Assembly: GCF_054482595.1 (NCBI RefSeq)
Contig: NZ_CM137008.1
Length of the DNA stretch: 64,000 nt
Strand: one strand, 5' to 3'
The translations under genes and the position numbers were made by a program. Shown piece by piece: positions 48,357 through 64,000 of the stretch (position 1 is the first letter of the stretch; every line of letters starts with the position of its first letter). The notes beneath the pieces are model-generated. The model was not told where the DNA came from. It did not search any database and saw only the letters and a list, made by a program, of their open reading frames with translations.

Positions 48357-48646
48357 TTATACTCGTCATACTTCAAGTTGCATGTACTGCGACTACGTTC
48401 GTTCACCCCAGTCACTTACTTTAGTAAGCTCCTGGCGATTCACTCGCTTGTCACCTTCCTGCAACTCGAATTATTTAGAGTATATAAATATTAAAAATCA
48501 GGAAATGGCAGACGAATCCAGGGCAAGAAAAAAAGAATTAATCCTGGAAAGGTCTGCAAAGAGTCATTGATAAAGGATTTGTCATGATTTACCTCCTTGC
48601 AGTTTGTGGAATAAGAAAACGCGCACATACCAGGCGGGCGTTATTT

Positions 48647-49114
48647 TCATTGCAAGCTGGATTTAATGTTGCGGTTTATATCGCATAGAAAAATTAGTAA
48701 ACCACGCTCCCCGGCATTCAACGCGCTGCTGCTTAACTGTCTGAAAACCATAACGTTCAAAAAAGGGTTTGCGGTTATGCTTGCGTCCACCGTAAGTTCG
48801 GATTCAGACTTAATCAAAGGTTTTAACAAAGCGCTGGCAACCCCACGGCGGGTGTATTCAGGGTCAACAAATAACATATCGATATAATGTTCAATGCGGG
48901 AAATAAAACCAACCGGTTGTGCATTAATGACTGCAACCCGCACTTGTGATTTCGCGAGTTTCTCCTTCCAGCGAGATTCGTCAATCTGCGCCCAGGCGGC
49001 AATTTGTTGTGGTGAATAATGCTGACTTGCGGTCATCATAACCGCTCTAATGAAAATAGCGCATAGTTGCTGAAAATCGCCAGGCTGATAGTTTCTTATT
49101 TGTATGTTATTCAT
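48647..49114 (-). CDS. yafP: GNAT-family acetyltransferase YafP
   Basis: 155-aa ORF; start overlaps the dinB stop. Confidence 0.8.
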
Positions 49115-50166
49115 AATCCCAGCACCAGTTGTCTTTCCATTTGCGGGTCAAGCAACGTCACATGCAGCCCCACCAGACGCACACCTCGCCCGCCGCGGCG
49201 TTCATCCCAGGTTTTACGCGCGGTGGCGATTAAGTCAGCTTTATTCAGCCTCGGCCAGACGTGCTCCTGGGTGGTTTGCTGAAAATCGTCGAACTTTAAT
49301 TTCACCCCCTGGCGAGCAATCAGTAAATCAGGTTTTACCTTTGCCAGACGGCGTTCAAGTTCCGGATACAGCCGCTCGATAATCGCCTCACATTCAGACC
49401 AGTGATGAATATCTTCCGCCATCGTGCGTTCCACGCCGACGGATTTTCGCAACCGTTCGCTGTTAACATCGCGTTCGTCAATCCCCTGACTACGCTCCCA
49501 CAAAATGCGGCCAAATTTGCCAAAGCGTTTAAGCAGTATCACCAGATCACACTTTTGTACATCACCGCAGGTCCGCAGCCCCATCGCTTCCAGTTTTGCC
49601 GCCGAGACTTTGCCGACGCCGGGGATTTTTGCCAGTGATAAGGTTTGTAAAAATGCCGGAACTTCTGCCGGCGTAATCACAAACTGGCCGTTGGGTTTAT
49701 TCATGTCGGAGGCGATTTTGGCGAGAAACTTTACTGGTGCCACGCCCGCAGATGCCGTCAGTTGCAGCTCGTTGAAAATCGTCTGGCGGATTTCCTGGGC
49801 GATGAGGGTCGCAGAACCGTGGCAATGGACGCTGTCGGTGACATCGAGATAGGCTTCATCCAGTGACAACGGTTCAATGCGCGAGGTGTAGCGCGAGAAG
49901 ATTTCACGGATATGATTTGAGGCTTCTTTGTAGGCGTCAAAGCGCCCCGGAAGCAAGGTGAGATGTGGGCATAATTTGAGCGCCATCCCTGTCGGCATAG
50001 CGCTACGTACGCCAAATTTACGCGCGGGATAATTGGCGGTGCTGATCACCCCTCGACGTTCGCGGCTGCCGCCAATAGCAATAGGGATATCGCGCAGGGC
50101 GGGATTGTCGCGCATCTCCACCGCTGCGAAAAAGCAGTCCATATCCACATGAATGATTTTACGCAT
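49111..50166 (-). CDS. dinB: DNA polymerase IV
   Basis: 351-aa [36 protein letters not shown]... Confidence 0.95.
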
Positions 50167-50182
50167 TGCTCACCTCTCAACA

Positions 50183-50198
50183 CTGGTAAAGTATACAG
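50183..50198. promoter_or_regulatory. LexA (SOS) box upstream of dinB
   Basis: CTGGTAAAGTATACAG (CTG-N10-CAG palindrome) 17-32 bp upstream of the dinB start. Confidence 0.75.
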
Positions 50199-50236
50199 TG
50201 ATTTCAGGGTTTGAGAAATGCGTAAAGATTCAGCAT

Positions 50237-51000
50237 TTAACGCGTTCGCTGCGAAAGCACCTGCTGCTTATCCAGCTTTTGCACCAGTGGCTGCACCACT
50301 TTATCCCCATGCTGACCAAAGTATTGATACAGCGTATCGGACGCACTTTTGGTCAGCACCATAATCTCAATACGCCGATTGCCCGCGCTTTGCGGATTTT
50401 TGGCATCCAGCAGCATCTGGTCCGCCATTGCGCTTACCTGCATCACTTTATCTTCCGGCATTCCGGCCTCTTCCAGCACCCGACGAGCTGAAAGCGCGCG
50501 ATCGCCCGAAAGGTTCCAGTTGTTGTAGATATTGTTTTTGTAGGCCATCGCATCGGTATGCCCGGTAATAATAATTTTGTTATCGAGCGAGTCGAACACT
50601 GGCGCTAGCTCCACCAGCAGCGTTTTAAAGAACGGCATAATCTTCGCGCTGCCGCGTTCGAACATATTGCGATTCTGGTCGTCTTTAATCAGCACGCGTA
50701 ATCCCTGGGGAACAATCTCCATCTCCAGATTCGCTTCCATATGCGCATCACGGGCAATGGTGTTGATACTGGTTGCCAACTCGCCAAGCTCGGTGGCGGA
50801 TTTCTTCTTCAGCAGCGCCGTTTTCTCATTCACATCACGCGCTTTTTTCTCCGTCTCTTCCGGCACCGCCACGGTGGCAGGTTTTGGCGGATGAGACGGG
50901 CTGATTTTATTTAACGGCGACAGCCCACCACCGTTAAAAATCGACTGCCCGTGCAGCGCGGCGATAATGCTTTCACGCTCGGATTTACTGACGCTGTTGA
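50237..51000 (-). pseudogene. lafU: MotB-like Flag-2 motor protein remnant, 5'-truncated
   Basis: C-terminal OmpA-like peptidoglycan-binding domain (ITGHTDAMAY...NRRIEIMVL); the apparent N-terminal 40-50 aa of ORF 50237..51127 is antisense lfhA sequence. Confidence 0.7.
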
Positions 51001-52706
51001 CAATCAACTTTATCGTCGTCACCAAAGGGGCCGAGCGTATTTCCGAGGTTTCTGCCCGCTTTACCCTGGACGCGATGCCCGGCAAACAGATGGCGATTGA
51101 CGCCGACCTTAACGCCGGGTTGATCAACCAGGCGCAGGCGCAAACCCGGCGTAAAGATGTCGCCAGCGAGGCCGATTTCTACGGCGCGATGGACGGGGCA
51201 TCAAAGTTTGTGCGCGGGGACGCCATCGCCGGGATGATGATTCTGGCGATCAACCTGATCGGCGGTGTCTGTATCGGGATCTTCAAATACAACCTGAGCG
51301 CCGATGCTGCCTTCCAGCAATATGTGCTGATGACCATCGGCGACGGGCTGGTGGCGCAGATCCCTTCCCTGCTGCTCTCCACCGCGGCGGCGATTATCGT
51401 CACCCGCGTCAGCGACAACGGCGATATCGCCCATGACGTGCGCCACCAGCTGCTGGCAAGCCCGTCGGTGCTCTACACCGCCACCGGGATTATGTTTGTG
51501 CTGGCGGTGGTGCCGGGAATGCCGCATCTGCCGTTTTTGCTGTTCAGCGCCCTGCTTGGCTTTACCGGCTGGCGGATGAGCAAACGCCCGCAGGCAGCGG
51601 AGGCGGAGGAGAAAAGTCTCGAAACGCTGACCCGCACCATCACCGAAACCAGCGAGCAACAGGTCAGTTGGGAAACGATACCGCTGATCGAGCCTATCAG
51701 TTTAAGCCTCGGCTACAAACTGGTGGCGCTGGTGGACAAAGCCCAGGGCAACCCACTCACCCAGCGGATCCGCGGCGTGCGACAGGTGATATCCGACGGC
51801 AACGGCGTGCTGCTGCCGGAGATCCGCATTCGGGAAAATTTCCGCCTCAAGCCCAGCCAGTACGCCATTTTCATCAACGGTATTAAGGCTGATGAAGCGG
51901 ATATTCCGGCGGATAAACTGATGGCCCTGCCCTCCAGCGAAACCTACGGCGAGATTGACGGCGTGCTGGGGAACGACCCGGCGTACGGGATGCCGGTGAC
52001 CTGGATCCAGCCCGCGCAGAAAGCGAAGGCGCTGAATATGGGGTATCAGGTGATCGACAGCGCCAGCGTGATTGCCACCCATGTGAATAAGATTGTGCGC
52101 AGCTATATTCCTGATTTGTTTAACTATGATGATATTACGCAGTTGCATAATCGTTTGTCGTCGATGGCACCGCGCCTGGCAGAAGACTTAAGCGCGGCGC
52201 TGAATTACAGCCAGTTGCTGAAAGTGTACCGCACACTACTGACCGAAGGCGTTTCCCTGCGCGATATCGTCACCATCGCCACCGTGCTGGTCGCCAGTAG
52301 CGCGGTGACTAAAGATCATATTCTGCTGGCGGCCGATGTACGCCTGGCGCTGCGGCGCAGCATTACCCATCCGTTCGTTCGCAAGCAGGAGCTGACGGTG
52401 TATACGCTGAATAATGAGCTGGAAAATCTGCTCACCAATGTGGTGAATCAGGCGCAACAGGGCGGCAAAGTGATGCTCGACAGCGTGCCGGTTGACCCGA
52501 ATATGCTCAACCAGTTCCAGAGCACGATGCCGCAGGTAAAAGAGCAGATGAAAGCGGCGGGGAAAGACCCGGTGCTGCTGGTGCCGCCGCAGCTTCGCCC
52601 TTTGCTGGCGCGCTATGCGAGATTGTTTGCGCCGGGGCTGCATGTGCTGTCGTATAACGAAGTGCCGGATGAGCTGGAGTTGAAGATTATGGGGGCGTTG
52701 ATGTAG
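50967..52706 (+). pseudogene. lfhA: Flag-2 FlhA-family export-apparatus gene remnant lacking the first ~120 codons
   Basis: ORF begins inside the FlhA transmembrane region (VVTKGAERISEVSARFTLDAMPGKQMAIDADLNAGLI); no upstream coding sequence. Confidence 0.75.
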
Positions 52707-52900
52707 GTATCCGGCATCGGTGCACAACCGCCGGATGCGGCGTGAACGCCTTATCCGGCCTACCGATCCGGCACAGGTTTGTAGGCATGATAAGACGCGC
52801 CAGCGTCGCATCAGGCATCCGCGCACAATTGCCGGATGCGGCACAAGTTTGTAGGCATGATAAGACGCGCTAGCGTCGCATCAGGCATCCGCGCACAATT
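52707..52900. repeat. REP/BIME cluster (several REP palindromes)
   Basis: Repeated gccggatgcggcgtgaacgccttatccggcctac and gtaggcatgataagacgcgccagcgtcgcatcaggc units. Confidence 0.85.
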
Positions 52901-53396
52901 ATGAAATGATACGCTCCCCGGCACTAAAATCCGTTATGTTACCCGCCCAATCAATGGGATATAACCCTCGCGCCACATCGCGATGGAACGTTGAGAATGG
53001 CCAATCACACACCTGCTTTACCCAGCCATGTTTCACTGGATTTATATAAATATAATCAACATGATGCCGATAATCTTTTGTATTACGGATGGCATGCTCC
53101 CAAAAACGTGGTTGCCAGATATTTTTCAATCCACAAGCATGGGTGAATTGCTTTTTAATCTCTCTCCAGCGCGAGGAAAAATCATCATCGCCTTCAGGTA
53201 ATGTCCATATGCAATGCATATGCTCTGGCAAAACGACCCAAGCGTTGATTTCAAAAGGTCTGTCTCGCTTAACGTTAATAATAGCGTTACGGAGCATCTG
53301 GAACTGAGCGGTCAGAAGGTGGCTTCGACGATTTCGTAGGTTAACCGTGAAAAACCAGGTTCCCCCCTTGATGTAATACCGACGATATTCAGACAT
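52899..53396 (-). CDS. rayT: REP-associated tyrosine transposase (RAYT)
   Basis: 165-aa ORF with HuH-type motif (PEHMHCIWTLPEGD) and catalytic Tyr region; flanked by REP clusters on both sides. Confidence 0.8.
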   Translation of the reverse strand: MSEYRRYYIKGGTWFFTVNLRNRRSHLLTAQFQMLRNAIINVKRDRPFEINAWVVLPEHMHCIWTLPEGDDDFSSRWREIKKQFTHACGLKNIWQPRFWEHAIRNTKDYRHHVDYIYINPVKHGWVKQVCDWPFSTFHRDVARGLYPIDWAGNITDFSAGERIIS

Positions 53397-53479
53397 AGCG
53401 ACTCCTTTTTCTCAACGGTAAGAAGAAAAGGAAAGGTTGGCAATGAGGTTGTTTTATATCGGGAAAGCGGCTCGCAAAT

Positions 53480-53575
53480 ATTCGCGGGCTCGTAGGCATG
53501 ATAAGACGCGCCAGCGTCGCATCAGGCACCTGCGTACAACTGCCGGATGCGGCGTAAACGCCTTATCCGTCCTAC
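53480..53575. repeat. REP elements
   Basis: tcgtaggcatgataagacgcgccagcgtcgcatcaggc...gccggatgcggcgtaaacgccttatcc. Confidence 0.85.
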
Positions 53576-54321
53576 AAAATCGTCTCTTCCGTCAAAATCC
53601 GGCGCGCGCCTAAAAAATGATCCTGCCAGAAAGGTTCAGCTAACCGACTTACCCGAATGGTTTCCCCGGTGCGCGGTGACTCAATAAACTGACCGTCGCC
53701 CAGATATACCCCCATATGGTCGGCAATCTCGCGGCTGTGGATATGGAAAAACAGCAAATCTCCCCGGCGCAGGTCGTTATTCGCCACAATCGTTGCCCGA
53801 TGGTAGTGATACATCTCATTAGCCGTACGCTGGAGCTTCGCCTCGAGGATCTTGTTGTAGGCATAAAAAACCAACCCGCTACAGTCAAAGCCTTTATCAG
53901 GCCGCGTGCCGCCCCAGACGTAAGGCTTGCCAAGCTGCTGCTCCAGGCGGTGAATCGCCACTTCGGTAATGTTATGCAGATGGTCGCTGCTTAAAAAGTG
54001 GTTGTTTTCCGCCAGCGCCTGCCAGCGTCTGTCACTCGCCTTGAGCGGCGCAGGAAACCATTCTGGATGCTGTTTTATCTGTTCGCGGTTGTGCTGGCGC
54101 AGCGCCCTTCTGCTTTCGGCATTGCCTTCCACAATATAGCTGGCCTGCTTTTTCAGATGGGTTTGGTACTGTTTTAATAAACGCGCACGGTTTTGCATCC
54201 GCTGGCGGGCGGCGTAGCTGAAAGAGATATGTGATGTGGTGGCGCTGGCAAATGAAGAAAACGGCAAACAAATCAACAGTAATCCCGACAATACAAAGGA
54301 TGGAATCGACGGCAAGGACAT
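53572..54321 (-). CDS. yafL: NlpC/P60-family peptidoglycan endopeptidase lipoprotein YafL
   Basis: ORF 53572..54381; start at MSLPSIPSFVLSGLLLICLPFSSFA; catalytic Cys context GFDCSGLVFYAY and His (HMGVYLGDG). Confidence 0.85.
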   Translation of the reverse strand: MSLPSIPSFVLSGLLLICLPFSSFASATTSHISFSYAARQRMQNRARLLKQYQTHLKKQASYIVEGNAESRRALRQHNREQIKQHPEWFPAPLKASDRRWQALAENNHFLSSDHLHNITEVAIHRLEQQLGKPYVWGGTRPDKGFDCSGLVFYAYNKILEAKLQRTANEMYHYHRATIVANNDLRRGDLLFFHIHSREIADHMGVYLGDGQFIESPRTGETIRVSRLAEPFWQDHFLGARRILTEETIL

Positions 54322-54498
54322 ACTCAATAATGGCTGGTCATGCTTTAATGTTGCAGTGTATCCCGGATCGTTTCTGAACAAACTTAATAAACCATTATTA
54401 TAAAATTAACATATATATTTCAGTGAATTATGTAAATACATCAGTTTATTGAATTGCTCATAAATTGCCGCTGTTGCTCAATTGAGCTACAATTCAAG

Positions 54499-54514
54499 CT
54501 GAATATATATACAG
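54499..54514. promoter_or_regulatory. LexA box upstream of dinJ
   Basis: CTGAATATATATACAG 17 bp upstream of the dinJ start. Confidence 0.75.
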
Positions 54515-54530
54515 CACAGGAGATACCCCA

Positions 54531-54791
54531 ATGGCTGCAAATGCATTTGTTCGCGCCCGAATCGATGAAGATCTGAAGAATCAGGCGGCGGACGTACTGG
54601 CCGGGATGGGGCTGACCATCTCTGACCTGGTTCGCATAACCCTCACAAAGGTCGCGCGTGAAAAGGCATTGCCGTTTGATTTACGCGAGCCTAATCAATT
54701 AACCATTCAATCAATCAAAAACAGCGAAGCTGGCGTTGGTGTTCATAAGGCCAAAGACGCCGATGATTTATTTGATAAATTAGGAATTTAA
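54531..54791 (+). CDS. dinJ: Antitoxin DinJ
   Basis: 86-aa MAANAFVRARIDEDLKNQAADVLAGMGLTISDLVRITL... Confidence 0.9.
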   Translation: MAANAFVRARIDEDLKNQAADVLAGMGLTISDLVRITLTKVAREKALPFDLREPNQLTIQSIKNSEAGVGVHKAKDADDLFDKLGI

Positions 54792-54793
54792 AT

Positions 54794-55072
54794 ATGATTC
54801 AAAGGGATATTGAATACTCGGGACAATTTTCAAAGGATGTAAAACTTGCACAAAAGCGTCATAAGGATATGAATAAATTGAAATATCTTATGACGCTTCT
54901 TATCAATAATACTTTACCGCTTCCAGCTGTTTATAAAGACCACCCGCTGCAAGGTTCATGGAAAGGTTATCGCGATGCTCATGTCGAACCGGACTGGCTC
55001 CTGATTTACAAACTTACCGATAAACTTTTACGATTTGAGAGAACTGGAACTCACGCGGCGCTCTTTGGGTAA
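54794..55072 (+). CDS. yafQ: mRNA interferase toxin YafQ (RelE fold)
   Basis: 92-aa MIQRDIEYSGQFSKDVKLAQKRHKDMNKL...; 2 bp after dinJ. Confidence 0.9.
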   Translation: MIQRDIEYSGQFSKDVKLAQKRHKDMNKLKYLMTLLINNTLPLPAVYKDHPLQGSWKGYRDAHVEPDWLLIYKLTDKLLRFERTGTHAALFG

Positions 55073-55227
55073 AGCCCGCTGCCGATGAAATTTGTAAACC
55101 CTGCGCCGACAGGCTTGCGTAAAACTCTTTTGGTGATAATGTGAGCCTTCCAAATCCAGACTATTCCGATTTGGGATCCATTTTGCCGTCCTGGCGTGTG
55201 TAACCGTTTTATCAAGGAATAAGCAGT

Positions 55228-55968
55228 ATGCGTAAAATCGCATTAATTCTTGCGATGTTGTTGATCCCGTGCGTTTCGTTTGCCGGTTTGCTGGGCAGCA
55301 GTAGCTCGACCACGCCAGTGAGCAAAGAGTATAAGCAGCAGTTGATGGGATCCCCTGTCTACATCCAGATCTTCAAGGAAGAACGTACGCTCGATCTCTA
55401 CGTCAAAATGGGTGAGCAATATCAACTGCTCGACAGCTATAAAATCTGTAAATATTCCGGCGGCTTAGGGCCAAAACAGCGTCAGGGCGATTTCAAAAGC
55501 CCGGAAGGGTTTTATAGCGTCCAGCGTAATCAGTTAAAACCAGACAGCCGTTACTACAAAGCGATTAATATTGGTTTCCCCAATGCCTATGACCGTGCGC
55601 ATGGTTATGAAGGGAAATACCTGATGATCCACGGCGATTGTGTTTCCATCGGCTGCTACGCAATGACCAATCAGGGTATTGATGAGATCTTCCAGTTCGT
55701 TACTGGTGCGCTGGTGTTTGGTCAGCCGAGCGTGCAAGTGAGTATTTACCCGTTCCGCATGACCGACGCTAATATGAAGCGCCACAAATATTCCAACTTT
55801 AAGGACTTCTGGGAGCAACTGAAGCCAGGCTACGACTACTTTGAGCAAACCCGTAAGCCACCGACCGTTTCTGTGGTCAATGGCCGTTACGTGGTCAGCA
55901 AGCCGTTAAGCCACGAAGTTGTGCAACCACAACTGGCATCAAACTACACGCTCCCCGAGGCAAAATAA
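55228..55968 (+). CDS. yafK: L,D-transpeptidase-family periplasmic protein YafK
   Basis: 246-aa ORF with signal peptide; YkuD-like motif [14 protein letters not shown]. Confidence 0.85.
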
Positions 55969-56706
55969 GCGCCATTCGCCTGGCATAATCTTTTGCCAGG
56001 TTTCATTGCCCGTCAGCGGCTGTGTCGCAATCACCGTGACCACATCATTCGGTGTGGTCTGCGAGCTGAAGTCGATTTCTACATCCTGATCCAGCAACGT
56101 TGCCACGCCAAACGGCGCGCGGCGGGTGATCCAGTGTAAATTAGTCGAGCAATACGCCATTACATAGCGACCGTCCGAAAGCAGCATGTTGAAAACGCCC
56201 TTCGCCCGCAGTTCATCCGCCAGTGAGGCGATATATTTAAACACTGCCGCCATGTTGCCCGGCGTGCGCGGGTAACGCTGCGTTAATTTATGCAGGAGCC
56301 AGCAAAAGGCTTTTTCGCTGTCGGTTTCACCGACCGGGCGGAAGTTGCCGGTTTCCAGTGATTTGTAGCCCGTCAGTTGCCCGTTATGGGCATAAGTCCA
56401 GTTACGCCCCCATAACTCGCGGGTAAACGGGTGAGTATTTTCCAGCGCCACCTCGCCCCGATTAGCCTGGCGAATATGAGCCACCACCGAACAGGATTTT
56501 ATCGGGTAGTCCTGGACCAGTTTGGCGATAGGTGAGTTAAAGCTGGGTTGCGGATCTTTAAATGTGCGACAGCCTTTACCTTCGTAAAAGGTAATGCCCC
56601 AGCCATCTTTATGTGGCCCGGTTCCACCACCACGCTGCACCAGACCGGTGAAACTAAAGCAGATATCGGTAGGGACGTTGGCGCTCATCCCGAGCAATTC
56701 GCACAT
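55939..56706 (-). CDS. yafJ: Class II glutamine amidotransferase YafJ
   Basis: ORF 55939..56721; N-terminal [11 protein letters not shown] (Cys2 nucleophile). Confidence 0.85.
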
Positions 56707-56759
56707 GGGTAACCTCCACAACAGCGGGAGCGCATGGCCCCCGGCGAAGATTGATTTAA

Positions 56760-56905
56760 GAATTTTCAGGTCGGATGCGGCGTGAACGCATTATTCGGCC
56801 TACGGTTCGCGTACAGATTTGTAGGCATGATAAGACGCGTCAGCGTCGCATCAGGCATCGGTGCACAATTGCCGGATGCGGCGTAAACGTCTTATCCGGC
56901 CTACG
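56760..56905. repeat. REP/BIME cluster
   Basis: tcggatgcggcgtgaacgc...gtaggcatgataagacgcgtcagcgtcgcatcaggc...gccggatgcggcgtaaacgtcttatccggcctacgcc. Confidence 0.85.
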
Positions 56906-56911
56906 CCAGAC

Positions 56912-57490
56912 TTACTTAACCATCTCTTTTTCAATCAACTGGATCAGGATATGGATCACTTTAATGTGAATCTCCTGAATGCGGTCGGCATAACCAAAGT
57001 GCGGTACGCGAATTTCGATATCCGCCGTGCCAGCCATTTTGCCGCCGTCTTTACCGGTCAGGGTGATCACTTTCATTCCCTTCTCACGCGCCGCTGCGAT
57101 CGCTTTGATCACGTTTGCAGAGTTACCGGAGGTGGAGATCCCCAGCAGTACATCGCCTTCGCGACCTACCGCTTCAACGTAACGGGAGAAAATATCATTG
57201 AAACCGAAATCGTTACCGACGCAGGAAATATGACTAACGTCAGAAATAGCAATCGCCGGGTAGCCCGGACGGTTTTCACGGTAGCGACCGGTCAACTCTT
57301 CGGCAAAGTGCATAGCGTCGCAATGGGAACCGCCGTTGCCGCAGGAAAGCACTTTGCCACCGGCTTTAAAGCTGTCTGCTAACAGGACCGCCGCGCGCTG
57401 AATGGCGTGAATATTGGCGTCATCTTTTAAAAAGTTAGCCAGCGTTTCCGCCGCTTCGTTCAGTTCGTTACGAATAAGATCCTGGTACAT
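56912..57490 (-). CDS. gmhA: Sedoheptulose-7-phosphate (phosphoheptose) isomerase
   Basis: ORF 56912..57652; start at [17 protein letters not shown] (192 aa); SIS domain. Confidence 0.9.
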
Positions 57491-57691
57491 GAGGATATCC
57501 TTCAGCATAAATGTAATAGACAAAATGCAGTGTACCGGATACCGCCAAAAGCGAGAAGTACGGGCAGGTGCTATGACCAGGACTTTTTGACCTGAAGTGC
57601 GGATAAAAACAGCAACAATGTGAGCTTTGTTGTAATTATATTGTAAACACATTGCTAAATGTTTTTACATCCACTACAACCATATCATCAC

Positions 57692-57708
57692 AAGTGGTCA
57701 GACCTCCT
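57692..57708. promoter_or_regulatory. FadR operator upstream of fadE
   Basis: AAGTGGTCAGACCTCCT resembles the FadR consensus (TGGTCnGACC core), 22 bp upstream of the fadE start. Confidence 0.6.
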
Positions 57709-57729
57709 ACAAGTAAGGGGCTTTTCGTT

Positions 57730-60174
57730 ATGATGATTTTGAGTATTCTCGCTACGGTTGTCCTGCTCGGCGCGTTGTTCTATCACCGCGTGAGCTTATT
57801 TATCAGCAGTCTGATTTTGCTCGCCTGGACAGCCGCCCTCGGCGTTGCTGGTCTGTGGTCGGCGTGGGTACTGGTGCCTCTGGCCATTATCCTCGTGCCA
57901 TTTAACTTTGCGCCTATGCGTAAGTCGATGATTTCCGCGCCGGTATTTCGCGGTTTCCGTAAGGTGATGCCGCCGATGTCGCGCACTGAGAAAGAAGCGA
58001 TTGATGCGGGCACCACCTGGTGGGAGGGCGACTTGTTCCAGGGCAAGCCGGACTGGAAAAAGCTGCATAACTATCCGCAGCCGCGCCTGACGGCTGAAGA
58101 GCAAGCGTTTCTCGACGGCCCGGTAGAAGAAGCCTGCCGGATGGCGAATGATTTCCAGATCACCCATGAGCTGGCTGATTTGCCGCCGGAGTTGTGGGCG
58201 TACCTTAAAGAGCATCGCTTCTTCGCGATGATCATCAAAAAAGAGTACGGCGGGCTGGAGTTCTCGGCTTATGCCCAGTCTCGTGTGCTGCAAAAACTCT
58301 CCGGCGTGAGCGGGATCCTGGCGATTACCGTCGGCGTGCCGAACTCATTAGGCCCGGGCGAGCTGCTGCAACATTACGGCACTGACGAGCAGAAAGATCA
58401 CTATCTGCCGCGTCTGGCGCGTGGTCAGGAAATCCCTTGCTTTGCACTAACCAGCCCGGAAGCGGGTTCCGATGCGGGCGCGATTCCGGATACCGGGATT
58501 GTCTGCATGGGTGAATGGCAGGGCCAGCAGGTGCTGGGCATGCGACTGACCTGGAACAAACGCTACATTACGCTGGCACCGATTGCGACCGTGCTGGGTC
58601 TGGCATTTAAACTCTCCGACCCGGAAAAATTGCTGGGTGGCGCAGAAGATTTAGGTATTACCTGTGCGCTGATCCCGACCACCACGCCGGGCGTGGAAAT
58701 TGGTCGTCGCCACTTCCCGCTGAACGTACCGTTCCAGAACGGACCGACGCGCGGTAAAGATGTCTTCGTGCCGATCGATTACATCATCGGCGGGCCGAAA
58801 ATGGCCGGGCAAGGCTGGCGGATGCTGGTGGAGTGCCTCTCGGTAGGCCGCGGCATCACACTGCCTTCCAACTCAACCGGCGGCGTGAAATCGGTAGCGC
58901 TGGCAACCGGCGCGTATGCTCACATTCGCCGTCAGTTCAAAATCTCTATCGGTAAGATGGAAGGGATTGAAGAGCCGCTGGCGCGTATTGCCGGGAACGC
59001 TTATGTAATGGATGCTGCGGCATCGCTGATTACCTACGGCATTATGCTCGGCGAAAAACCTGCCGTGCTGTCGGCTATCGTTAAGTATCACTGTACCCAC
59101 CGCGGGCAGCAGTCGATTATTGATGCGATGGATATTACCGGCGGTAAAGGCATTATGCTCGGGCAAAGCAACTTCCTGGCGCGTGCTTACCAGGGCGCAC
59201 CGATTGCCATCACCGTTGAAGGGGCTAACATTCTGACCCGCAGCATGATGATCTTCGGACAAGGAGCGATTCGTTGCCATCCGTACGTGCTGGAAGAGAT
59301 GGAAGCGGCGAAGAACAATGACGTCAACGCGTTCGATAAACTGTTGTTCAAACATATCGGTCACGTCGGTAGCAACAAAGTTCGCAGCTTCTGGCTGGGC
59401 CTGACGCGCGGTTTAACCAGCAGCACGCCAACCGGCGATGCCACTAAACGCTACTATCAGCATCTTAACCGCCTGAGCGCCAACCTCGCCCTGCTTTCTG
59501 ATGTCTCGATGGCAGTGCTGGGCGGCAGCCTGAAACGTCGTGAGCGTATCTCGGCACGTCTGGGGGATATTTTAAGCCAGCTTTACCTCGCCTCTGCCGT
59601 TCTGAAGCGTTATGACGACGAAGGCCGTAATGAAGCCGATCTGCCGCTGGTGCACTGGGGCGTACAGGATGCGCTGTATCAGGCAGAACAGGCGATGGAC
59701 GATTTACTGCAAAACTTCCCGAACCGCGTGGTTGCCGGGCTGCTGAATGTGGTGATCTTCCCGACCGGACGTCATTATCTGGCACCGTCTGACAAGCTGG
59801 ATCATAAAGTGGCGAAGATTTTACAAGTGCCGAACGCCACTCGTTCACGTATTGGTCGCGGTCAGTACCTGACGCCAAGCGAGCATAACCCGGTTGGTTT
59901 ACTGGAAGAGGCGTTGGTGGATGTGATTGCCGCCGACCCGATTCATCAGCGGATCTGTAAAGAGCTGGGTAAAAATCTGCCATTTACCCGTCTGGATGAA
60001 CTGGCGCACAACGCGCTGGCGAAGGGGCTGATTGATAAAGATGAAGCCGCTATTCTGGTGAAAGCGGAAGAAAGCCGTCTGCGCAGTATTAACGTTGATG
60101 ATTTTGATCCGGAAGAGCTGGCGACGAAGCCGGTAAAGTTGCCGGAGAAAGTGCGGAAAGTTGAAGCCGCGTAA
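57730..60174 (+). CDS. fadE: Acyl-CoA dehydrogenase FadE
   Basis: ORF 57652..60174; start at [13 protein letters not shown] (814 aa). Confidence 0.9.
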
Positions 60175-60182
60175 TTGAATAA

Positions 60183-60212
60183 CGGAGCCGAAAGGCTCCG
60201 TTTCTTTATCCG
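60183..60212. terminator. Rho-independent bidirectional terminator (fadE / ivy)
   Basis: cggagccgaaaggctccg followed by tttcttt. Confidence 0.7.
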
Positions 60213-60216
60213 CTAA

Positions 60217-60690
60217 TTATTTAAAATTAAAGCCATCCGGATGGTTTTCCAGGCTGCCGGTCAACGCCGCGAACAGCACCGTTTTACCATCAATCGAAAG
60301 CGCATCGTTCACATTCAACCAGGTGAGTTTCTCTTGCGACGTTTTCTCATCAATAGTCGAGAACAGCCCCGTCATCTGATTAGATTTCTCGGACCACATC
60401 ACAGCGATACGTTGCGAGCCACAGTCATGCGGTTTGCACGCGCTCATCACCTGATACGTCTCATCTCCCAACGTTACGGTTTGTGCGGGAGTATAAGTAC
60501 CGCCTTTCATCACCCATGCAGGTAGCTTATGCCCTTGCACCATCTGATTAAACGCAGCTTTGGTGGTTTCGCCCTTTGCCAGGCTGCTAATGGTTAAATC
60601 ATCCTGCGCCATTGCACTGGTGGCGATGACCAGAGCGGCGACTGTCGTTATTGCCTTAAACATCATTCCTCCCGAGCTTATCCTGCCCAT
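60217..60690 (-). CDS. ivy: Inhibitor of vertebrate (C-type) lysozyme Ivy
   Basis: 157-aa ORF with signal peptide and the CKPHDC inhibitory loop. Confidence 0.9.
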   Translation of the reverse strand: MGRISSGGMMFKAITTVAALVIATSAMAQDDLTISSLAKGETTKAAFNQMVQGHKLPAWVMKGGTYTPAQTVTLGDETYQVMSACKPHDCGSQRIAVMWSEKSNQMTGLFSTIDEKTSQEKLTWLNVNDALSIDGKTVLFAALTGSLENHPDGFNFK

Positions 60691-60843
60691 GTTATTAACC
60701 TCCTAAAGCCTGGCGATAACACGATAATTTGCAAATCAGATATTTCCAATATCAGCGTTGGTTATCAATTTATTCTGCGCTAAGGCAACTGCCTGATAAG
60801 GTGTTAAAGTTATAAAACCCTTCGCATAAAGGAGTTGTACACC

Positions 60844-61614
60844 GTGCCTGGTTTGAAGATTACGCTTTTGCAGCAACCACTGGTGTGGATGGATGGTCCT
60901 GCCAACCTGCGCCATTTTGATCGTCAACTGGAAGGTATTACCGGGCGCGATGTGATCGTTCTACCGGAGATGTTTACCAGCGGCTTTGCCATGGAAGCGG
61001 CAGCTTCGTCGCTAGCGCAAGATGACGTAGTGAACTGGATGACAGCTAAAGCGCAGCAGTGCAATGCGCTGATTGCAGGCAGTGTTGCATTACAAACGGA
61101 GTCTGGTTCGGTTAACCGCTTTTTGCTGGTTGAGCCGGGCGGCACGGTACATTTTTATGATAAGCGTCATCTGTTCCGCATGGCAGATGAGCATCTGCAT
61201 TATAAAGCGGGCAATGCGCGAGTGATTGTGGAATGGCGCGGCTGGCGTATTTTGCCGCTGGTGTGCTACGACTTACGTTTTCCTGTGTGGTCGCGCAATC
61301 TCAACGATTATGACCTCGCCCTGTACGTCGCCAACTGGCCTGCTCCGCGCTCTCTGCACTGGCAGGCATTGCTGACGGCCCGCGCGATTGAGAATCAGGC
61401 GTATGTGGCGGGATGCAATCGCGTCGGCAGCGATGGCAACGGCTGCCATTATCGCGGTGACAGCCGGGTGATTAATCCACAAGGCGAGATTATCGCTACT
61501 GCCGACGCGCATCAGGCAACGCGCATTGATGCCGAGCTGTCGATGGCGGTGTTAAGGGAATATCGCGATAAGTTTCCGGCATGGCGAGATGCGGATGAGT
61601 TTAGGTTGCGGTGA
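60844..61614 (+). CDS. yafV: Nitrilase-superfamily omega-amidase YafV
   Basis: ORF 60835..61614; carbon-nitrogen hydrolase motifs ([19 protein letters not shown]); start may be the GTG at 60844. Confidence 0.85.
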
Positions 61615-62040
61615 GTGGGGGCTGTGTTTAGGGCCGGGGAGAGTCGGGGTAAGACTACGAAAGCCCGCTCTCCTGCGACCACTTTTATCATAGGAGTGTG
61701 GAAGCGCTTTTCCATCAATCGCGATGACGTCTTTGTCATTTGATGAATGGCAGTCACGCATCCAGTTAATAAAGCACTCGTGAAATTTTGCAGGACTGAT
61801 ACAGGATACAACTCTGGCAATGGTATCGTGAACAGGCATACCATTTTCAAAATCACCATATTGCTTCAAAAAATCGAGATGTGTTTCCCCAAAACCCTCT
61901 ATATCTTCCCAACCTTCTGCACCAGAAATAACGGCACAAATAGTCAACAGTAGAATATCCGATAATTTATGTTCCACGTTCCAGGCTTGTCTGTAATCAG
62001 GGATAATAGAAATATGTTCCATCAATTTTTTAAGTTCCAT
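61552..62040 (-). pseudogene. H-repeat-associated (ISAs1-family) transposase, N-terminal fragment
   Basis: First ~120 aa ([61 protein letters not shown]...) match H-rpt proteins, then the frame diverges and runs antisense into yafV. Confidence 0.75.
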
Positions 62041-62343
62041 TTTGTTCTCCTTAATTATGCAAGGAGTATTTGATCATGTATAAGCAATAAAAACAGCTTC
62101 AGGTAATGAGGAATATCTCAATTTTTAAACATAAAATGCGAACTATTTAGTACAAAAAGTGAACTTCTGATGATCTTTCCCTGGATTTACATTAGGTTGG
62201 TTATTTTCCATACCCACAACTATATTTTCTCTCTGAATTTAATACGTGCAAGACAATCGCAGCACTCTAACTGACTTCGATGTGATTTGATGTTCAGAAA
62301 AATCCCTCATTAGATTATTATCATGAAATACAGCCAATTATCT

Positions 62344-63369
62344 TTAGTTTTTATATTTCTCAATATATTCTTTTGAAAGGATTCGCGCCTTTTCAAACTC
62401 TTCAGGAGTTAATCTATTTTCCATCTTCAATTTATATTGAACACTTTTATCAAGTCCATGAGCGTATGCGGCACTGAACCAGGCATATGCCTTTTTATTA
62501 TCGAGTGGTAACTCTTTCGTGCCTACGGAATAGATTAATGCAAGATTATGTTGTGCAACAGGATCACCATGTGTGGCTGACTTTCTTAACAGTTCTATTG
62601 CTTTATATTTATTTACAGTAATCCCACCCAGTCCTTCATAGTAAAAGATACTTAGTGCTGATTGTGCTTTTATGAAACCTTGACTTGCCGATTTATCATA
62701 CCAAAAGGCGGCTTTATTATAATCCTTTTTAATAATAACGCCTTCATAATAGAGTCGCCCTAAATGATACTGAGCAACCTTATCCCCTTGCTCCGCAGCG
62801 ATACGATACCACTTATCTGCCAGATCTTTTTTATTAGTCTCATCATATAGTAAAGCAAGGTTAGTTTGAGCCGTAACTAATCCAGAATTTGCAGCTTTAT
62901 TTAACCACGCTATGGCCTTACCATAATCTCTTATCACGCCACTCCCTTTACTATATAATACTCCTAAGTTTCCCTGCGCTTCTGGAAAACCTTTTTCAGC
63001 TGCCATTTGATAACATTCAAATGCTTTTTCATAATTTTGAGACACCCCATAACCATGAGCATACATAACACCGAGGTTATACTGAGCCTCTGTCAGCCCC
63101 TGTTTTGCTGCAAGCGAGTACCAATATACTGCATCTTTATAACTCTGGATTCCTTCAGAACCACTTCGATATAACTCCGCGAGTTTAAATTGCGCAGTAG
63201 CATCTCCCTTATCAGCATCTTTTCTTATATATGTCATTTTATTGGAGGCTGCTGTGTCTTCTGTCACCCCAATTGCAACAGGAATACTCAACACTTCAAA
63301 AAAAAACATCACAACAACACACATTAATATTTTTCGGTTATTTTTTATCGGCATCTTTTTTATCATCAC
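62344..63369 (-). CDS. Secreted Sel1-repeat (TPR-like) protein; candidate immunity protein
   Basis: 341-aa ORF; N-terminal hydrophobic signal/anchor; about 8 tandem Sel1 repeats (AQxxLGxxYxxGxGVxxDYxKAxxWYxKAA); immediately downstream of the toxin tip. Confidence 0.7.
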   Translation of the reverse strand: MMIKKMPIKNNRKILMCVVVMFFFEVLSIPVAIGVTEDTAASNKMTYIRKDADKGDATAQFKLAELYRSGSEGIQSYKDAVYWYSLAAKQGLTEAQYNLGVMYAHGYGVSQNYEKAFECYQMAAEKGFPEAQGNLGVLYSKGSGVIRDYGKAIAWLNKAANSGLVTAQTNLALLYDETNKKDLADKWYRIAAEQGDKVAQYHLGRLYYEGVIIKKDYNKAAFWYDKSASQGFIKAQSALSIFYYEGLGGITVNKYKAIELLRKSATHGDPVAQHNLALIYSVGTKELPLDNKKAYAWFSAAYAHGLDKSVQYKLKMENRLTPEEFEKARILSKEYIEKYKN

Positions 63370-63472
63370 CTTTAAATTTATCTACCGCTTCACTAGAAGT
63401 CATGTCAGTAATATAATCTCCAAATGCATTTTCAGGCACAAAGGGTAATTTACCCAAAGTTGCACCTAATAA

Positions 63473-64000
63473 TTACTCCGCTCCTGTATCAGCAGCAGCA
63501 TAAACACCAGATTTAAAATCCCCTCCCTTACTTAAAAATGACAATCCCATTTTCAAAGCTATTTTCTCAACAAACGTTTTTCCCGCTCCCCAAGAACCAC
63601 CTAAAGCACATAGCGCCAACTCGGATTTATCCGGCATCTTATGATCAGACATATAGTCAGTCGTAGCAACCGCACCACATGAACTAAGACTTCCAATTGC
63701 TATCTCCCCCCATGTAAGAGTCCCCCCTTCTAATGCAGCCGCACTTGCTACTGGCCCGGTAAATACTACTCCGGCAATAACAGGAGGCAGTAAAGCCCAT
63801 CCTTTTACATAATCGTCTAATGGATTATACACTCCACGCATACTTGAAAAATCATCCAACGCTTTAAATTTTTCTTCATCTGACAGGTTCGGGGCGAATC
63901 CAACATTAGCCCCCTGCATAGTGTTATAATAATTAGTTCCAAATATCATTTGCGGCGTTACATTAGCTAACCCCAACGGATCTATATGTTCAATAGGATT
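63473..64000 (-). CDS. C-terminal tip of an Rhs-type polymorphic toxin (5' end beyond window)
   Basis: Frame is open to the window edge; translation at 63970-64000 reads NPIEHIDPLGL (PxxxxDPxGL demarcation motif), followed by a ~165-aa glycine-rich, partly hydrophobic domain ending at the stop at 63473. Confidence 0.6.
   Translation of the reverse strand, partial: NPIEHIDPLGLANVTPQMIFGTNYYNTMQGANVGFAPNLSDEEKFKALDDFSSMRGVYNPLDDYVKGWALLPPVIAGVVFTGPVASAAALEGGTLTWGEIAIGSLSSCGAVATTDYMSDHKMPDKSELALCALGGSWGAGKTFVEKIALKMGLSFLSKGGDFKSGVYAAADTGAE

Follow-up and report, generated by a model that had tools for sequence, protein, structure and literature searches.

A truncated Rhs toxin tip and a candidate Sel1-repeat immunity protein at the yafV-side end of an Escherichia coli type VI secretion island

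A probable Rhs effector-immunity module at the window edge

We analyzed a 64,000-nucleotide stretch of Escherichia coli DNA (contig NZ_CM137008.1 of NCBI RefSeq assembly GCF_054482595.1; the whole stretch is called the window). Its right-hand end carries, on the minus strand, the 3' end of a vgrG-linked Rhs effector gene, a candidate immunity gene and what an ISAs1 element has left behind, an architecture that we regard as close to certain. The Rhs toxin tip is cut short by a premature stop codon, and the gene directly downstream encodes a Sel1-repeat protein. As judged from the sequence, the module is most likely a decaying and probably inactive weapon of which the immunity half has been kept. 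Polymorphic Rhs toxins help to settle contact-dependent competition between strains, and many of their tips have no assigned activity. The locus provides a clear genomic case for a large Sel1-repeat protein as a candidate cognate immunity factor.

The polymorphic toxin at the C-terminus is encased in a shell made by the Rhs core, from which the motif PxxxxDPxGL separates it. Frame reading at the window edge gave the last 11 codons of such a core, NPIEHIDPLGL (63968–64000, minus strand), with the boundary motif PLNPIEHIDPLGL at 64000–63968; the gene continues past the edge. The upstream Rhs core, vgrG, hcp and the genes of a type VI secretion system (T6SS) lie outside the window and were read in genomes identical to it over 13 kb. 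Window positions 51003–64000 showed 1 mismatch in 12,998 aligned bases against E. coli O157:H16 strain Santai, and a positional comparison with strain SM107 over the same interval gave the same single differing site. Four complete E. coli genomes were identical to the window throughout 61552–64000. The aspV–yafV interval of the matching genomes holds a complete T6SS-1 cluster, including tssB-C-E-F-G, tagH, tssJ-K, icmH and tssH, and the gene order is hcp, vgrG, Rhs, Sel1, ISAs1 remnant and yafV. RefSeq annotates the parts generically, as 'RHS element core protein', 'tetratricopeptide repeat protein' and an ISAs1 pseudogene, and the system as a whole is a standard vgrG-linked Rhs effector-immunity module.

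In four E. coli genomes of identical sequence, the window's frame is part of a 1425-aa protein encoded just downstream of hcp and vgrG, and a read-through allele (locus L003, strain XH990) encodes 1470 aa. Residues 1–1261 of the L003 protein matched positions 1–1261 of the NCBIfam RHS_core profile NF041261 with 2594 bits (cut-off 2000), and the profile ends exactly at the boundary motif. The same protein contained YD repeats (TIGR01643) in five stretches and the Rhs-associated core (TIGR03696) at 1184–1261, and Pfam reported DUF6531, 12 copies of RHS_repeat, and RHS. The original prediction had named the end of an Rhs core at this place and had allowed that DPLGL might be a chance match. Because RHS_core, the YD repeats and the Rhs-associated core all match upstream of DPLGL in the matching genomes, chance is ruled out and the core end stands. 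It had also proposed looking upstream for YD repeats, vgrG or hcp, and a PAAR domain. The first two are present in the matching genomes, but Pfam found no PAAR_motif in residues 1–48, only DUF6531 at 49–126; the N-terminus, MGGKPAARQGD, is PAAR-like by eye. The GC content falls from 63% in the core to 41% for the tip and 37% for the Sel1 gene, the classic Rhs pattern.

A nonsense mutation removes the last 45 residues of the tip

The tip had been described as a domain of about 165 aa, which turned out to be the length of a truncated form. The tip in the window has 164 codons (63476–63967, minus strand): about 52 aa of a hydrophilic N-terminal sub-domain, followed by the first 112 of the 157 residues that form the C-terminal toxin domain; the split was placed at a conserved DYVKGW. 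It ends at a premature TAA (63473–63475, minus strand), which comparison with GAA-reading relatives identified as a G-to-T change in a GAA (Glu) codon. The in-frame continuation, now the untranslated 3' end of the toxin gene (63338–63472, minus strand), comprises 44 codons (LLGATLGKLPFVPENAFGDYITDMTSSEAVDKFKGDDKKDADKK) and the original TAA at 63340–63338, 17 nt inside the Sel1 gene (ATG at 63354). The intact tip is 209 aa (residues 1262–1470 of WP_021556444); the length of an open reading frame (ORF) should not be taken as the length of a domain.

The relatives agree on the intact reading. Protein cluster P0001 (49 members) has Glu at the position of the window's stop and then 44 more residues (...TGAE-E-LLGATLGKLPFVPENAFGDYITDMTSSEAVDKFKGDDKKDADKK), and loci L002–L005 have GAA there. 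The tip was present in 32 of 5426 complete E. coli genomes. Four of these carried the TAA, namely Santai, SM107, W619 and a record labelled as a plasmid of AHM21C2872I; the GAA allele was found by exact identity across a 71-nt probe in 10 of the 32, and the annotated Rhs coding sequence extends into the Sel1 gene in 27. One of the 32, strain 2824, also has an annotated IS1 copy at the locus. Beyond E. coli, the tips of homologues P0004, P0007, P0011, P0012 and L026 all extend past the position of the window's stop. The lost segment contains the motifs LP[FY]VP and GDY[IV]TD, which are conserved in homologues. In the sister clades of the family it aligns with a glycine-zipper-like helix, and the window's stop falls inside the aligned segment.

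The nonsense mutation appears to be recent, since Santai and XH990 differ at only 3 positions in the 23.2-kb T6SS-Rhs-Sel1 region and one of the three is the stop codon. We considered whether the TAA is harmless, either as a sequencing error or because the 164-aa form is itself a functional toxin. In favor of a functional short form, the hydrophobic segment and the GxxxxGK motif of the tip both lie upstream of the stop, and the allele persists in four complete genomes. A sequencing error is excluded, however, because five independent assemblies, the window included, carry the TAA. The frame is read through in 28 of 32 genomes and in every homologue from another genus that reaches this far. Moreover, the lost segment holds the best-conserved C-terminal motif, aligned with the zipper-like helix of the sister clades, and the allele arose where the T6SS gene tssH was already broken (see below). 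A harmless stop codon is therefore improbable.

A tblastn search of a plasmid collection returned one record only, apparently mislabelled chromosomal DNA. The 100,861-bp record NZ_CP104632.1 is labelled 'plasmid pHNAH212872-2' and contains chromosomal core genes over at least 30 kb. Its positions 1–30000 (locus L023) include a vgrG fragment, Rhs, Sel1, yafV, ivy, fadE, gmhA, dinJ-yafQ and the Flag-2 cluster. The record is probably an assembly or labelling artefact and not a case of plasmid-borne Rhs.

The Sel1-repeat protein is the candidate immunity protein

The Sel1 gene (62344–63354, minus strand; RefSeq WP_001695458) encodes a protein of 336 aa. Sel1 repeats are tandem units of 36–38 residues; the protein contains six of them (PF08238, E from 4e-12 to 2.6e-4) and a partial seventh, and matched Sel1-like repeat (SLR) proteins of the PDB down to 8e-78. 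It had been predicted as a secreted Sel1-repeat protein of 341 aa. The repeats are borne out, but the length corresponds to an alternative GTG start at 63369. The ATG at 63354 is the likelier start because RefSeq uses it and homologues begin there (MPIKNNRK, MAIKNSRK and MANIKNKK). The N-terminus, a putative export or anchor segment, is basic at first and then hydrophobic for about 20 residues (MPIKNNRK-ILMCVVVMFFFEVLSIPVAIG; in L012, MANIKNKKHTP-MAILIIATVFFITLISVYFW), and such N-termini were seen by eye in three Sel1 orthologues.

Several lines of evidence tie this gene to the toxin. It lies directly downstream, and in the intact E. coli allele the toxin and Sel1 reading frames overlap by 17 nt; the frames overlap again in L015. 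By its layout, the 17-nt overlap is typical of a translationally coupled toxin-immunity pair. A Shine-Dalgarno-like AGGTGA within 63372–63362 lies 8–13 nt upstream of the Sel1 ATG, so the gene would still be translatable after the coupling was lost. Among the 5426 E. coli genomes, the 32 with the Sel1 gene were exactly the 32 with the tip. Close Sel1 orthologues were as rare as the toxin, with three clusters at ≥61% identity, and the remaining matches showed generic repeat similarity of ≤49%. Sel1 orthologues follow the toxin homologues in L011, L015/L026 and L012, which gives four diverged lineages including E. coli.

We read the downstream gene for every homologue with a reachable contig and compared it with the identities of the N-terminal sub-domain and the C-terminal domain to the E. 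coli proteins. In Salmonella Texas (L011; 83% and 73%, respectively) the toxin is followed by a Sel1 protein of 77% identity, and both genes are frameshifted. The intact metagenomic tip L026 (47% and 61%) is followed by a Sel1 protein of 59% identity, and L012, an orphan module behind a different main Rhs (23% and 55%), by one of 38%. Homologue P0004 (75% and 36%) is followed by an 81-aa protein with two hydrophobic helices whose start overlaps the toxin stop, and P0017 has the same downstream type. An 85-aa membrane protein follows P0005 (76% and 24%), and a 201-aa protein with two N-terminal hydrophobic helices follows P0018 (Buttiauxella). The identity of the Sel1 protein thus falls along with that of the toxin C-terminal domain, and the type of downstream gene goes with this domain and not with the N-terminal lead-in, as expected if the domain is the toxic one and the downstream protein recognizes it.

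The toxin-immunity pairing, offered earlier as a suggestion, gains support from the direct downstream position, the 17-nt overlap, the shared 32 genomes and the co-divergence in four lineages. We consider it likely that the Sel1 protein, as a candidate on comparative grounds, is the cognate immunity protein. Its size had been called unusual for such a protein; Sel1-repeat precedents exist in Sel1E (PMC7108748) and PA5088 (cited in PMC7216683), and the objection falls away.

Alternatively, the Sel1 protein might be exported to act in virulence or regulation, or be an effector of its own, with the Rhs gene merely as its neighbor. Sel1-like proteins of Salmonella pathogenicity island 19 (SPI-19) are reported to modulate type III secretion system (T3SS) expression and chicken infection (Zhang 2022, as cited in PMC13014557), a Klebsiella Sel1 protein is toxic when over-expressed and has been proposed as a T6SS effector (PMC12469244), and Sel1 repeats are common in host-interaction proteins (PMC2907695). 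We find such a role quite improbable for the protein studied here. A bystander gene would hardly overlap the toxin stop by 17 nt in both E. coli and L015, co-occur strictly with the tip, and have its close orthologues only beside this toxin. It also co-diverges with the C-terminal domain and gives way to other membrane proteins when that domain changes, and in Salmonella Texas it is pseudogenised along with the toxin.

Two of these loci are of interest in themselves. In Salmonella Texas (L011:22-1841), a frameshift-broken orphan copy of the toxin is followed by a Sel1 gene split into pieces of 114 aa and 207 aa. The metagenomic, enterobacterial locus L012 (115-6421) contains vgrG, a 1369-aa main Rhs with a different tip and an 85-aa immunity candidate. 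Further along it has a frameshifted orphan Rhs fragment with a tip of the present toxin family and a 350-aa Sel1 protein. This layout is typical of an orphan toxin-immunity array.

State of the locus in this lineage

The state of the T6SS was read in the closest genomes. In the five examined (Santai, SM107, W619, XH990 and GF66.1), tssH (clpV) has a stop at codon 273 of 913 (L001:331-3069; the same gene in L019, L020, L022 and L024). By contrast, EC1515 (L021) has an intact tssH of 919 aa and an intact Rhs of 1462 aa. Judging from these reading frames, the T6SS needed to deliver this Rhs is probably impaired in the lineage. XH990 and GF66.1 have a broken tssH and an intact tip, indicating that tssH was broken before the toxin acquired its stop. 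The G-to-T change would then have removed the conserved last 45 residues of the tip and uncoupled the toxin and immunity frames, leaving the Sel1 gene intact. A toxin stop together with a retained immunity gene is consistent with relaxed selection on a disabled weapon. In this genome the weapon is probably disarmed and the immunity kept, the usual fate of such loci.

Other changes were seen in other genomes. The Sel1 gene of five E. coli genomes (H132–H136) aligns over 1012 nt against 1011 in the window, a one-base indel. In one of the five, DSM 103246 (L002), RefSeq has shifted the Sel1 start and marked the Rhs gene as frameshifted, and Sel1 is separated from the ISAs1 remnant by an IS66 element. 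The indel and the changes in DSM 103246 are a further sign of module decay.

The tip belongs to a rare, unannotated family

By sequence comparison, the tip is a member of a rare, unannotated family of putative Rhs-delivered toxins. The strings GPVASAAALEGG and CALGGSWGAG reported earlier are present in it. The tip matched nothing in Pfam (even at E≤10) or NCBIfam, and neither did any of 13 family members scanned singly, in agreement with the earlier remark that it has no recognisable nuclease or deaminase signature. HMMER over 1.84 billion cluster representatives returned 12 matches, of which two (P0013 and P0015, unrelated repeat proteins) were spurious, and a profile search of a set of 5.8 billion proteins returned 22. 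The relatives with a named source were all Enterobacterales (Escherichia, Salmonella, Buttiauxella, Yokenella and Enterobacter), and those whose sequence was read were Rhs C-termini or orphan Rhs fragments. Two peptide patterns of the Sel1-linked clade found no relative in 100,044 species-representative genomes; the whole-family alignment is too diverse for such patterns. Literature searches for the RefSeq accessions returned no paper. The toxin family, its pairing with Sel1 and the switch of immunity type are absent from databases and the searchable literature.

The family alignment spans the whole length of the tip. Three glycines (G124, G129 and G141) are invariant, a basic residue after G129 (GxxxxG[KR]) is conserved across the family, and the alignment contains no conserved set of catalytic-type residues. 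The C-terminal domain is rich in Gly, Ala, Ser and Thr, which together make up 37–52% of the residues in family members. A hydrophobic segment at about residues 55–80 occurs in all members, with 19-residue Kyte-Doolittle averages of 1.0–1.9 (1.67 in the window). The window's tip has a single clearly hydrophobic stretch (ALLPPVIAGVVFTGPVASA), located in the C-terminal domain upstream of the stop. Several sister clades have a glycine-zipper-like repeat run near residues 140–160 (e.g., GAISGAGLGTVASGVAG), and the three richest members have 7 zipper-like motifs against about 2–3 expected from composition. The Sel1-linked clade has an invariant GxxGAGK[TSG]F...KMGxSFLSxG...GxLP[FY]VP stretch, and its C97 and C120 are invariant. 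In the window the stretch falls in 63476–63610 (about residues 120–164 of the tip) and in the lost 63341–63472.

Predicted activity of the intact toxin

We propose the following course of events for the intact system. The T6SS would deliver the toxin to the periplasm of the target cell, where it may associate with or insert into the cytoplasmic membrane and dissipate the membrane potential. In the producer and its siblings, the Sel1 protein, exported and tethered to the membrane, would bind the C-terminal domain in the periplasm and block the toxin. The explanation as a whole (an effector-immunity module with a membrane mechanism that has decayed in this lineage) is the best available, and we hold it with moderate confidence. 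Its component concerning the activity is more tentative: from sequence and family context, membrane depolarisation is a candidate activity to which we give slightly less than an even chance.

The original prediction suggested a membrane-targeting or pore-forming activity, which the family context makes plausible. A membrane target is favored for four reasons. First, there are no conserved catalytic residues, and only glycines are invariant. Second, the hydrophobic helix is conserved, and zipper-like runs occur in several sister clades. Third, the immunity candidate of every clade is a membrane or exported protein. Finally, precedents exist in Tse5 and in the two-domain toxins of contact-dependent growth inhibition (CDI) that act as ionophores.

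Several points weigh against parts of this explanation. The window's clade shows no excess of zipper-like motifs (1 against 2.0 expected). The Sel1-linked clade is also the most polar, with 8% Lys, 8% Asp and one stretch above 1.6 in hydropathy. PDB sequence searches with a single sequence and two profiles gave no significant match and no pore-former, and AlphaFold2 with alignments of 8 and 13 sequences gave all-helical models with pLDDT (predicted local distance difference test) scores of 36 and 41, which were unusable. The placement of the Sel1 repeat domain in the periplasm is putative, a reading by eye from the positive-inside rule. As to the decay, the truncated toxin could retain some activity. 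In addition, the tssH of the window genome is judged from its relatives, and left of 51003 the window departs from the sequence of the other TAA-allele genomes.

The intact tip might instead be a soluble periplasmic toxin that forms no pore but binds or cleaves a lipid carrier, a peptidoglycan precursor or a phospholipid head group, with the Sel1 protein neutralising it by binding. This is rather unlikely. The comparatively polar character of the window's clade and its ordinary number of zipper motifs fit a soluble protein, and the invariant C97 and C120 could form a periplasmic disulfide. The immunity protein is itself a soluble-type repeat protein and not a polytopic membrane protein; the known Sel1-repeat immunity proteins pair with non-pore effectors (PMC7108748 and PMC7216683). 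Against an enzyme of this kind, the wider family conserves no catalytic set of His, Ser, Asp or Cys, only glycines, and no enzyme family was matched. Furthermore, where the same domain occurs in sister clades, the immunity proteins are membrane proteins with two helices, a type that is typical for membrane-inserting toxins and plausibly points to a membrane-targeting toxin here as well.

The GGSWGAGKT of the tip fits the Walker A pattern GxxxxGK[ST], which raised another lead. The C-terminal half of the tip might be a degenerate P-loop module, similar to nucleoside monophosphate (NMP) kinases, with a cytoplasmic nucleotide or phosphorylated metabolite as its target in the manner of zeta-type kinase toxins. 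The PDB searches returned only adenylate and cytidylate kinases, at E of about 0.5 with the single sequence. The profile of the Sel1 clade gave E=0.028–0.06 over 17 matches, all adenylate or cytidylate kinases, and the alignment covers the P-loop, a helix, a strand and a 'G.LVP' region (GGSWGAGKT, KMGLSFLSKG and GKLPFVPEN). These matches vanished, however, with the whole-family profile, and the sister clades have GxxxxGR, in which Arg replaces the Walker lysine. Pfam ADK and other P-loop kinase models were silent even at E≤10, and hhalign gave 7% probability against an approximate sequence of E. coli Adk. The motif is followed by about 85 residues only, which is not enough for a kinase core; the tip thus lacks a complete core with an invariant Walker A lysine. 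The immunity candidates are membrane proteins or are exported, and ATP is absent from the periplasm. With the lysine not conserved in sister clades and the immunity proteins exported, NMP-kinase homology was rejected as the leading explanation, and such a module is very improbable.

For the wider family, the membrane mechanism leads to a more speculative proposal, namely a new family of membrane-targeting Rhs toxins, so far confined to Enterobacterales, in which one domain is neutralised by unrelated immunity proteins in different clades. We offer this as a possibility at somewhat less than even chances. The same grade applies to the proposed assignment of immunity types by clade: membrane proteins of about 80 aa with two helices, a 201-aa membrane protein, or a periplasmic Sel1-repeat protein. 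Switching of the immunity type between clades is uncommon and directly testable. If the proposal is true, the family would be a natural series on how a soluble repeat protein replaces an intramembrane immunity protein, and the Salmonella SPI-19 'Sel1-like virulence proteins' would be recast as remnants of Rhs immunity genes.

Comparison with known systems

The locus resembles the RhsA-like vgrG-linked elements (NF041261) of the E. coli T6SS-1/aspV island in its GC-rich full core, PxxxxDPxGL motif, AT-rich tip, immunity gene and H-repeat/ISAs1 remnant, and in having hcp and vgrG upstream. It differs from them in that the tip family is unannotated, found in 32 of 5426 genomes, and here truncated by a stop.

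Tse5 of Pseudomonas aeruginosa is an Rhs pore-former. Its C-terminal domain of 149 residues lacks any predicted enzymatic function and depolarises cells, and the two-helix membrane protein Tsi5 counters it (PMC9637101). Tse5 and the present family (PMC9637101, PMC10684867) are both Rhs effectors with a C-terminal domain of about 150–200 aa, no predicted enzyme and hydrophobic or amphipathic helices, and the immunity proteins of the sister clades, of about 80 aa with two transmembrane helices, are Tsi5-like. However, PDB searches, which should include the Tse5 chains, showed no sequence similarity to Tse5, a further point on the negative side of the membrane mechanism. In contrast to Tsi5, the candidate immunity protein of the window's clade is a 336-aa Sel1-repeat protein and not a small membrane protein.

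CDI ionophore toxins have two domains, with the immunity specificity in the C-terminal one (PMC11630599). Like the tip, the toxins of the CdiA-CT EC93 family consist of two parts, the N-terminal one variable and the C-terminal one a helical domain rich in glycine, and their immunity proteins are highly polymorphic. Unlike that family, the tip is delivered by Rhs and the T6SS, has no CdiA among its relatives, and gave no five-helix bundle with AlphaFold.

Sel1-repeat proteins have been linked to T6SS immunity before. Sel1E protects against VgrG4 in Klebsiella pneumoniae (PMC7108748), and PA5086–PA5088 are cited as immunity proteins of PldB in P. aeruginosa (PMC7216683). Like the Sel1 protein of the window, they are encoded directly downstream of a T6SS effector, and PA5087 (5jkp) matched the window's protein with E=3.7e-13. 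The partner toxins differ (the DUF2345 domain of VgrG4 and a phospholipase D), and the likeness is that of a generic repeat fold with ≤45% identity.

Among the Sel1-like proteins of SPI-19, those of Agona and Weltevreden are intact and those of Gallinarum, Enteritidis and Dublin are split (PMC2907695); in S. Pullorum, the proteins have been studied as T3SS modulators (PMC13014557). The SPI-19 protein sits at the Rhs end of a related T6SS island and is intact or split depending on the serovar, and the Salmonella Texas protein is likewise split. The SPI-19 papers interpret these proteins as factors in host interaction or regulation and not in immunity; likened by their description, the genes may be immunity genes of the same kind.

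The ISAs1 remnant and the island boundary

An AT-rich spacer (62041–62343) with a GC content of about 0.31–0.35 separates the Sel1 gene from the ISAs1 remnant. It contains no ORF or orphan toxin module, and promoter and terminator scans gave chance-level results. The original prediction placed an H-repeat (ISAs1) fragment next to the Sel1 gene. The fragment is real: ORF 62040–61552 matched NF033564 with E=3.7e-34 over profile positions 1–96 of 314 only. However, only 62040–61666 of this ORF is derived from ISAs1, and beyond 61666 it runs antisense into the 3' end of yafV. The ISAs1 part (61666–62040, minus strand) is the 5' remnant of an ISAs1-family transposase gene (NF033564), with about 124 codons of roughly at least 314. 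RefSeq annotates the gene as a pseudogene without its C-terminus, and the ISAs1 sequence is a remnant and not a complete element.

The right-hand boundary of the island lies at 61615–61673. The gene order of the window from left to right is fadE, ivy, yafV and then the Rhs/Sel1/ISAs1 region. The sole blastn alignment of the window with K-12 positions 234000–243000 covered 60800–61673; K-12 homology starts at 61673, 59 nt beyond the yafV stop, which ends at 61614. Between tRNA-aspV and yafV, K-12 has only yafT, ykfM, yafU and yafF. By this comparison, the right edge of the window is assigned to the yafV-side end of the aspV T6SS-1 island. K-12 yafF was considered as the same H-repeat piece and rejected, since K-12 homology starts only at 61673.

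Left of 51003, the window departs from Santai, SM107 and W619. Positions 48500–51500 contain a K-12-like Flag-2 deletion, in which a truncated flhA/lfhA is joined to lafU, followed by dinB and yafP, and the genome that matched best was GF66.1. An intact Flag-2 flagellar cluster is retained by all TAA-allele genomes of the collection; the window genome thus mixes features that occur separately in the collection. Finally, two adjacent 66-nt repeats at 52765–52830 and 52835–52900, each about 95% identical to a tandem pair by rayT in Santai, are presumably repetitive extragenic palindromic (REP) elements.

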